The translations under genes were made by a program, and so were the position numbers. The notes below the pieces were generated by a model. That model made no database searches. It was not told where the DNA came from and saw only the letters and a program-made list of their open reading frames with translations. Below are positions 16,813 through 17,157 of a stretch of DNA of 64,000 nucleotides, piece by piece; within the stretch, counting starts at the first letter, position 1; every line of letters begins with the position of its first letter. The stretch is from a phage. The stretch lies in sequence record PQ724393.1. The stretch is one strand, 5' to 3'.

Positions 16813-16953
16813 TTATTCCTCGCCTTCATGTTTATGAGCAAATTCTTCTAATTCACGGTCACAATCTAAACAGGTTGCATTATCCCAAGCATCAAATACT
16901 GCTCGGTCTTCACTTACTGAACAACCACACACTTCACATTCAACTTCTTCCAT
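16813..16953 (-). CDS. zinc-ribbon small protein (46 aa)
   Basis: Not in track; own translation MEEVECEVCGCSVSEDRAVFDAWDNATCLDCDRELEEF...; SD GAGGAAA; packed between flanking genes. Confidence 0.4.
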   Translation of the reverse strand: MEEVECEVCGCSVSEDRAVFDAWDNATCLDCDRELEEFAHKHEGEE

Positions 16954-17157
16954 TTAGATTTCCTCAATGCGGGCATCATATTCAAAAACTTTATTGTCAT
17001 TAACAAAGGCTTTCACCAGTGCATTATTCACTTCTGCATACTGCACTGTAACCCATTCAATCATTTTTTGGTCACTAACATCCAGCGCAGTTTCTTTGGT
17101 AAACATATTACCGTTTTCAAACCAACCAATAAATACTACGATCTCTAATTTAAACAT
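16954..17157 (-). CDS. dmd: Dmd-like antitoxin (discriminator of mRNA degradation)
   Basis: 67 aa; VVFIGWFENGNMFTKE and QYAEVNNALVKAF resemble recalled T4 Dmd; position next to gene 41. Confidence 0.6.
   Translation of the reverse strand: MFKLEIVVFIGWFENGNMFTKETALDVSDQKMIEWVTVQYAEVNNALVKAFVNDNKVFEYDARIEEI

Follow-up and report, generated by a model that had tools for sequence, protein, structure and literature searches.

The locus at positions 16813-17157 of the window, i.e. the 64-kb stretch of phage DNA analysed here, is best explained as an early accessory operon that carries an ordinary Dmd orthologue together with ZnR, a 46-aa product that would be an independently mobile, acidic inhibitor. 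We assign a probability of roughly 55% to this reading as a whole. In the proposed arrangement, a promoter would be followed by four translationally chained genes, namely an RB69 ORF040c-like gene for a possible mini-ART, dmd, ZnR and a tifA-like gene (Table 1). ZnR is a concrete candidate in a T-even region where dmd, tifA and adfA each inhibit a different TA defence. It is among the smallest candidates of this island, was missed by older annotations, and its alleles are shuffled, as is expected for genes in an arms race.

The 1.2 kb around the locus share 94.8% identity with Escherichia phage JS98 and its relatives (genus Dhakavirus, Tevenvirinae), and the window is, as judged by sequence similarity, from a Dhakavirus, a JS98-like T4-type phage. 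Every gene of the locus is carried on the minus strand. The junctions within the operon are all alike: the terminal Glu codons of one gene (GAG GAA, with or without ATC) constitute the SD of the next, and are followed by TAA-ATG. Two nearly identical promoter-like cassettes, GTTTACA-N16/17-TGATACTATAGRCCTATCAAC, are located before the ART-dmd-ZnR-tifA operon and before sp. The first of them presumably acts as a promoter, and ZnR is presumably expressed early. In T4, dmd and tifA are transcribed as one operon from an early promoter (PMC9391042).

Table 1. Features of the operon and of its borders, in order of transcription (positions in the window).
Feature	Position	Strand	Remarks
Gene 41, replicative helicase	17558-18997	-	Upstream of the locus
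Terminator-like hairpin	17542..17559	-	AAGGAGCTTCGGCTCCTT followed by a T-run, directly past the gene 41 stop; consensus match only
Sigma-70/T4-early-type promoter-like site	17500..17527	-	TTTACA-16-TACTAT with extended TG; precedes the four-gene operon
RB69 ORF040c-like gene, 105 aa, possible Arr-like mini-ART	17158..17475	-	phrog_2110, E 1.7e-60; operon gene 1
Junction repeat, copy 1, GAGGAAATCTAAATG	17155..17169	-	SD, EEI codons, TAA and dmd ATG
dmd orthologue, 67 aa	16954..17157	-	Matches to Pfam, phrog_2102, PDB and T4 Dmd
Junction repeat, copy 2, GAGGAAATCTAAATG	16951..16965	-	SD, EEI codons, TAA and ZnR ATG
ZnR, 46-aa acidic Cys4 zinc-finger gene	16813..16953	-	Member of phrog_13952
Junction GAGGAATAAATG	16810..16821	-	Final two ZnR Glu codons form the SD; TAA adjoins the tifA-like ATG
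tifA (gene 61.4)-like gene, 79 aa, basic	16573..16812	-	Matches to T4 TifA and DUF7279; closes the operon
Second early-promoter-like cassette	16542..16570	-	TTTACA-17-TACTAT with TG; precedes sp
Spackle (sp)	16220..16513	-	Pfam T4_Spackle, E 3.4e-42; next transcription unit, downstream border

The sequence-only reading had compared the second gene of the operon to T4 Dmd, and this comparison is borne out by every search. The product matches Pfam PF17587 with 72 bits against a cutoff of 27 (E 5e-20; residues 5-63 on profile positions 4-59 of 60), phrog_2102 (E 5.3e-32) and the PDB Dmd chains 5i8j_A (E 2.1e-21) and 5hy3_B (E 1.4e-16). The alignment with T4 Dmd, by which the resemblance was to be checked, is full-length with 58% identity (E 9e-23). 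The 67-aa ORF is therefore clearly an ordinary Dmd orthologue, alike to T4 Dmd (gene 61.5; PF17587; PDB 5hy3 chain B, 5i8j) in family, in full-length alignment and in its gene 41-tifA/sp neighbourhood. Its position between gene 41 and 61.4/sp is kept, with the ART-like gene and ZnR interleaved relative to T4. Compared with T4 Dmd, the window copy has seven residues more, with three residues inserted internally and with the C-terminal sequence IEEI, whose codons supply the SD of the following gene; an ART-like gene stands upstream of it, whereas T4 has none. By homology, it would bind and block HEPN RNase toxins of the RnlA/LsoA type. Since dmd is already annotated in JS98 and nearly all its relatives, the Dmd part of the finding was known before and brings nothing new.

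The gene that follows dmd lies in a setting of established inhibitors. The T4 region of dmd, tifA and adfA has been described as an 'anti-TA island', whose remaining genes are 'attractive anti-toxin candidates' (PMC9391042). TifA is an inhibitor of the ToxN toxin (PMC9391042, PMC10853763), Dmd inhibits RnlA/LsoA, and the nearby 61.2 (AdfA) inhibits DarT (PMC9391042, PMC10853763, PMC11825919). The 79-aa product that closes the operon of the window is 47% identical to T4 gp61.4/TifA (E 3e-17), matches Pfam DUF7279 (E 8.6e-20) and has a net charge of +6. ZnR therefore sits between dmd and tifA within that operon, in the accessory region between gene 41 and gene 61.

We tentatively regard ZnR, by analogy with these neighbours, as a counter-defence inhibitor. 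This reading is founded on its island position, hyper-acidity, compact zinc-stabilised predicted fold, patchy distribution and mosaic alleles. ZnR would be a stoichiometric, zinc-stabilised acidic binder resembling a nucleic-acid mimic and, standing alone, it would block an effector of host defence or some other host protein that binds nucleic acids. Such a logic would parallel that of its operon neighbours Dmd and TifA, both of which inhibit defence toxins. Guilt by association is weak here because sp and imm, which serve superinfection exclusion and are not anti-toxin genes, lie in this hypervariable early region too. In addition, neither a PADLOC match nor homology to known anti-defence or defence proteins was found that would link ZnR to any defence system.

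Like TifA (gp61.4) and AdfA (gp61.2), ZnR is a small and presumably early accessory protein of the island, TifA being also encoded in the same operon. The alleles of TifA and AdfA vary and shuffle among related phages, as do those of ZnR. TifA and AdfA are direct TA-toxin inhibitors. ZnR shows no sequence or fold relationship to either of them; TifA is basic and RNA-binding, whereas ZnR is a strongly acidic Cys4 protein. It is rather doubtful that ZnR represents the founder of a new counter-defence class, in which a 4-5 kDa zinc-stabilised, hyper-acidic mini-protein would neutralise a toxin or abortive-infection effector of Enterobacterales other than RnlA/LsoA, ToxN and DarT, and would be exchanged as a cassette among T4-type phages via the SD-stop-start repeats. 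Should ZnR turn out to act as an inhibitor, a new target defence system would be revealed together with a very small inhibitor scaffold; otherwise ZnR would be another small early phage protein with its role unassigned.

Downstream of sp, the window contains an ORF of 144 aa (15784-16218, minus strand; orf30 of JS98) in the place occupied by 61.2/adfA in T4. Only the last 15 residues of this ORF match the C-terminus of the Pfam AdfA family, and weakly (E 0.008); the ORF could be an AdfA remnant or a relative that has diverged. Next to it, a second DUF7279/TifA-like paralogue of 73 aa (15561-15782, minus strand) matches a different PHROG (phrog_3272).

The sequence-only reading had described ZnR as a four-Cys zinc ribbon. 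The window copy has five cysteines (C6, C9, C11, C28 and C31), and the count of four holds for the family: C6, C9, C28 and C31 never vary, whereas in some members the place of C11 is taken by Tyr, Phe, His, Met or Val. Hardly any variation is seen in the AVFD and DNATC.DC segments either, and the variable positions are 7, 12-14, 16-17, 22-23, 33 and 35. The AlphaFold2 model, built from an 11-sequence alignment (pLDDT 85), has four short strands, at residues 3-5, 12-14, 18-20 and 26-28, followed by a helix (29-43). Of the two CxxC motifs, the first is placed in the knuckle of a hairpin and the second at the N-terminus of the helix, so that the predicted Cys4 finger resembles a treble clef and not a classical ribbon with its two knuckles. 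In this prediction, a Cys4 zinc finger is retained from the earlier description, and the classical ribbon is not. The four invariant cysteines would hold one Zn2+ in a small β-hairpin module followed by an acidic helix; zinc binding itself is presumed from this arrangement. The net charge is -13 in the window copy and ranges from -8 to -17 across all family members (39-50 residues), with the acidity at the terminus imposed in part by the SD of the following gene, which overlaps this end.

Searches of ZnR against Pfam, NCBIfam, PADLOC and PDB sequences returned nothing significant, and its fold matches are generic zinc fingers. A mimic of the ClpX N-terminal ZBD was considered and rejected: the Cys spacing is equal, but the hhalign probability is 10% and ZnR lacks the AAA+ body. 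The DksA/TraR C4 zinc finger (PF01258) scores 11.5 bits against a cutoff of 24.9 (E 0.32), and its coiled-coil is absent from ZnR. The ECs_2282 prophage CxxC family (NF047912) gives 16.5 bits against a cutoff of 37 (E 0.0058). CsfB/Gin, the anti-sigma-G protein of B. subtilis (PDB 5n7y), gives E 4.4; here the resemblance is that of the generic treble-clef fold, and its setting in Firmicute sporulation is unlike that of ZnR. A host-takeover regulator, i.e. a small zinc finger that would inhibit a component of transcription, of translation or of a protease in the host, in the manner of CsfB/Gin, DksA/TraR or the ClpX ZBD, would draw on just these similarities. They remain at the generic treble-clef level, with the Pfam score far under cutoff, and the patchy distribution and allele shuffling favour a strain-variable target over a conserved core host machine. 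We therefore consider this role improbable.

ZnR belongs to a very narrow family: when 1.84 billion representative proteins were searched exhaustively with an HMM, only four related clusters of 46-50 aa at E <= 1e-10 and three marginal hits were obtained. Neither a bacterial parent nor an 'orphan antitoxin' origin was detected, the word-indexed and HMM matches being all phage-like and 41-50 aa long. ZnR matches phrog_13952 end to end, with residues 1-46 on profile positions 1-46 of 46 (E 3.7e-28), and is thus a member of it. The window allele is 80-85% identical to the phrog_13952 members that were compared in full, differing by its CEVC knuckle, S14, R17 and L35, and no existing cluster was returned for it in a large protein search. 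No paralogue of ZnR was found within the 64-kb window; a 73-aa ORF at 41871-42092 (minus strand) has a CxxC-x18-CxxC pattern, and the HMM search shows no relation of it to the ZnR family. In Enterobacter phage Q7622 (locus L004, 1584-1727), a distantly related acidic CxxC...CxxC ORF of 47 aa, ending in GEEE, is located directly 3' of ZnR. Relatives of this second ORF occur in metagenomes (P0010, P0015), including a tandem-duplicated form of 88 aa.

The first gene of the operon would offer a different partner for ZnR. Its product carries the motif YYHGS...RVFFT and matches Arr-ms (Pfam, E 0.029) and rifampin_ARR (E 0.07), both weakly and under the cutoff; PDB sequences gave no match to it. A TTG at 17487 was considered as its start and discarded, the ATG at 17475 being the true start. 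An ART of the p0068 family together with Dmd has been proposed as a phage type II TA system in enterophages (Iyer et al. 2022; PMC9503650), and from its position beside dmd the ORF040c-like gene of the window is probably this p0068-family ART. ZnR might then be a regulator, antidote or cofactor of the mini-ART, in the 'antitoxin position' that Iyer et al. gave to Dmd. In every ZnR-bearing locus examined, ZnR shares its operon with the ART-like gene, which stands one to three genes before it, and in Kanagawavirus and PM2 ZnR comes directly after the ART-like gene, with stop and start codons that abut or overlap. However, the ART-like gene occurs in 610 Straboviridae records (63-100% identity; absent from T4) against 70 with ZnR, and it is followed by unrelated genes in the Klebsiella, Acinetobacter and Aeromonas phages among them, so that it does not need ZnR. 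Within Dhakavirus, moreover, the ART is 98-100% identical while ZnR differs by 15-20% and has shuffled alleles, which is unexpected for co-evolving partners. Such a partnership appears quite improbable to us.

The distribution of ZnR also separates it from dmd. By tblastn, ZnR is present in 70 phage records of at least four Tevenvirinae genera; the carriers are Dhakavirus, two Mosigvirus species (not RB69), Kanagawavirus, i.e. Enterobacter and Kosakonia phages, Mosugukvirus PM2 and Yersinia phage P8. A scan of IMG/VR gave one metagenomic ZnR locus beyond the GenBank genomes. Dmd-like sequences, in comparison, are found in 798 phage records. In five Kanagawavirus/Mosugukvirus genomes and one metagenomic contig, ZnR is located directly after the ORF040c-like gene and dmd is absent; by a genome-wide search, at most two Enterobacter-phage records can hold a Dmd match, against eight with ZnR. 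Conversely, T4, RB69 and VR20 have dmd and lack ZnR. The slot after dmd is occupied by tifA in T4 and RB69, by ZnR and then tifA in the window and JS98, and by ZnR alone in Shf125875 and five contigs (L026-L030). In VR20 it holds a 113-aa ORF with a Dmd-like motif, NALVEAFVDDK (locus L024, 2032-2373), possibly an extended Dmd paralogue.

The 'co-packed' pairing that the sequence-only reading had implied is not supported, since each gene occurs without the other, and a functional pairing of Dmd and ZnR is largely refuted by this distribution. It is highly probable that ZnR is functionally independent of Dmd. A dedicated helper, co-antitoxin or chaperone of Dmd would account for the abutting stop and start codons, for the SD embedded in dmd, and for the constant location of ZnR after the last dmd copy in Dhakavirus, Mosigvirus utam and Yersinia phage P8. 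Against it stand the Kanagawavirus and PM2 genomes without dmd, the counts in the Enterobacter-phage records, and T4, whose Dmd is functional without ZnR. In addition, dmd allele types of 54-100% identity adjoin similar ZnR alleles. A helper role is thus very improbable.

ZnR is almost certainly a real, translated gene, as far as can be judged from the pattern of its variation. The ORF coordinates and the abutting start codon with its SD, as given in the sequence-only reading, were confirmed on the minus strand: the dmd stop TAA (16956-16954) adjoins the ZnR ATG (16953-16951), and a GAGG SD is located 8 nt upstream, within the final dmd codons. The length of the ORF carries no weight, as 46 codons are within chance expectation and other frames of the window hold many such ORFs. 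ZnR is to be regarded as real because it is conserved. Among 25 loci, the gene occurs in 17 distinct nucleotide versions with a length of 39-47 codons, every length change being therefore in frame, and the SD and ATG are conserved. The pooled pN/pS is 0.25 in its own frame, the lowest of all six, with 0.38-1.55 in the other five. For the 36-codon core, dN/dS is 0.10-0.44 against the window copy, with an all-pairs median of 0.14, and non-synonymous changes are in deficit (binomial P down to ~1e-4). ZnR is under purifying selection.

An antisense ORF of 71 aa (16788-17003, plus strand), open in 15 of the 17 ZnR variants, was rejected as the coding frame with its pN/pS of 1.55, and neither an Rfam match nor an unusual fold around the start codon (z = -0.01) was obtained for an RNA element. 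That the 141 nt are an untranslated spacer or RNA element, as the shortness of the ORF, its omission from older annotations and the open antisense frame might suggest, is hardly credible in view of the pN/pS contrast, the non-synonymous deficit, the invariant cysteines, the in-frame indels and the kept SD and ATG. The sequence-only reading had also called the ORF unannotated, which is correct for older records (JS98, JS10, IME08, AnYang, VR5 and CIP9); newer ones mostly list it as 'hypothetical protein', and it has a PHROG of its own. ZnR is hence a genuine hypothetical gene that has already been catalogued. Our literature search found no paper naming the 46-aa ORF, its motif or RB69ORF040c.

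The junctions at the two ends of dmd provide a clue to the mobility of these genes. The exact 15-mer GAGGAAATCTAAATG has two copies in the 64-kb window, one at each end of dmd, where 0.21 are expected by chance. Its copy number equals that of dmd plus one in every ZnR-bearing locus with the motif (loci L001-L030) and in VR20: one without dmd, two with one dmd, and three in fDHCT2 and in three metagenomic contigs with two dmd genes. Shf125875 is an exception, having dmd and ZnR with a shifted junction (...GAGGAAATCTAAAATG) and no motif, and RB69 and T4 have dmd and no copy of GAGGAAATCTAAATG. The Kanagawavirus junction (…TTCTGC-GAGGAAATCTAAATG-GAAGAA…) corresponds to the window sequence minus one repeat and dmd. 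Taken together, the two-ended repeat and the copy rule indicate a cassette-like behaviour of dmd, with an SD-stop-start repeat as its boundary and with ZnR 3' of the last repeat. This implies that dmd may be gained, lost and duplicated through recombination at the GAGGAAATCTAAATG junction. The 15-bp junction offers a simple, sequence-level account of cassette gain, loss and duplication in T4-type phages.

At least three dmd allele types are found in the cassette, with 100-94%, ~68% and ~55% identity to the window copy. Two tandem dmd genes of different allele types (~54% identity) are present in some Dhakavirus-type genomes, namely in fDHCT2 (locus L002, 2055-2453) and in three contigs (L026-L028). 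In Yersinia phage P8 (locus L005, 1246-1455), Dmd starts with MEEFAK..., and a MEEF start is common to ZnR; the N-terminus of this Dmd may be chimeric, originating from junction recombination.

The ZnR alleles themselves appear to be exchanged on a small scale. Between the window and fDHCT2 there are no differences in dmd (204 nt) or in the tifA-like gene (240 nt), and ZnR has 16 differences, 8 synonymous and 8 non-synonymous, all within its nt 11-111. Such allele shuffling would be, by analogy, typical of arms-race loci. The patch covers ~100 bp at 16843-16943 (minus strand) and is flanked by difference-free stretches of 204 nt and 270 nt, the latter comprising the 3' end of ZnR and the tifA-like gene; it resembles an allele swap of the gene-conversion kind, limited to the core of the zinc finger.
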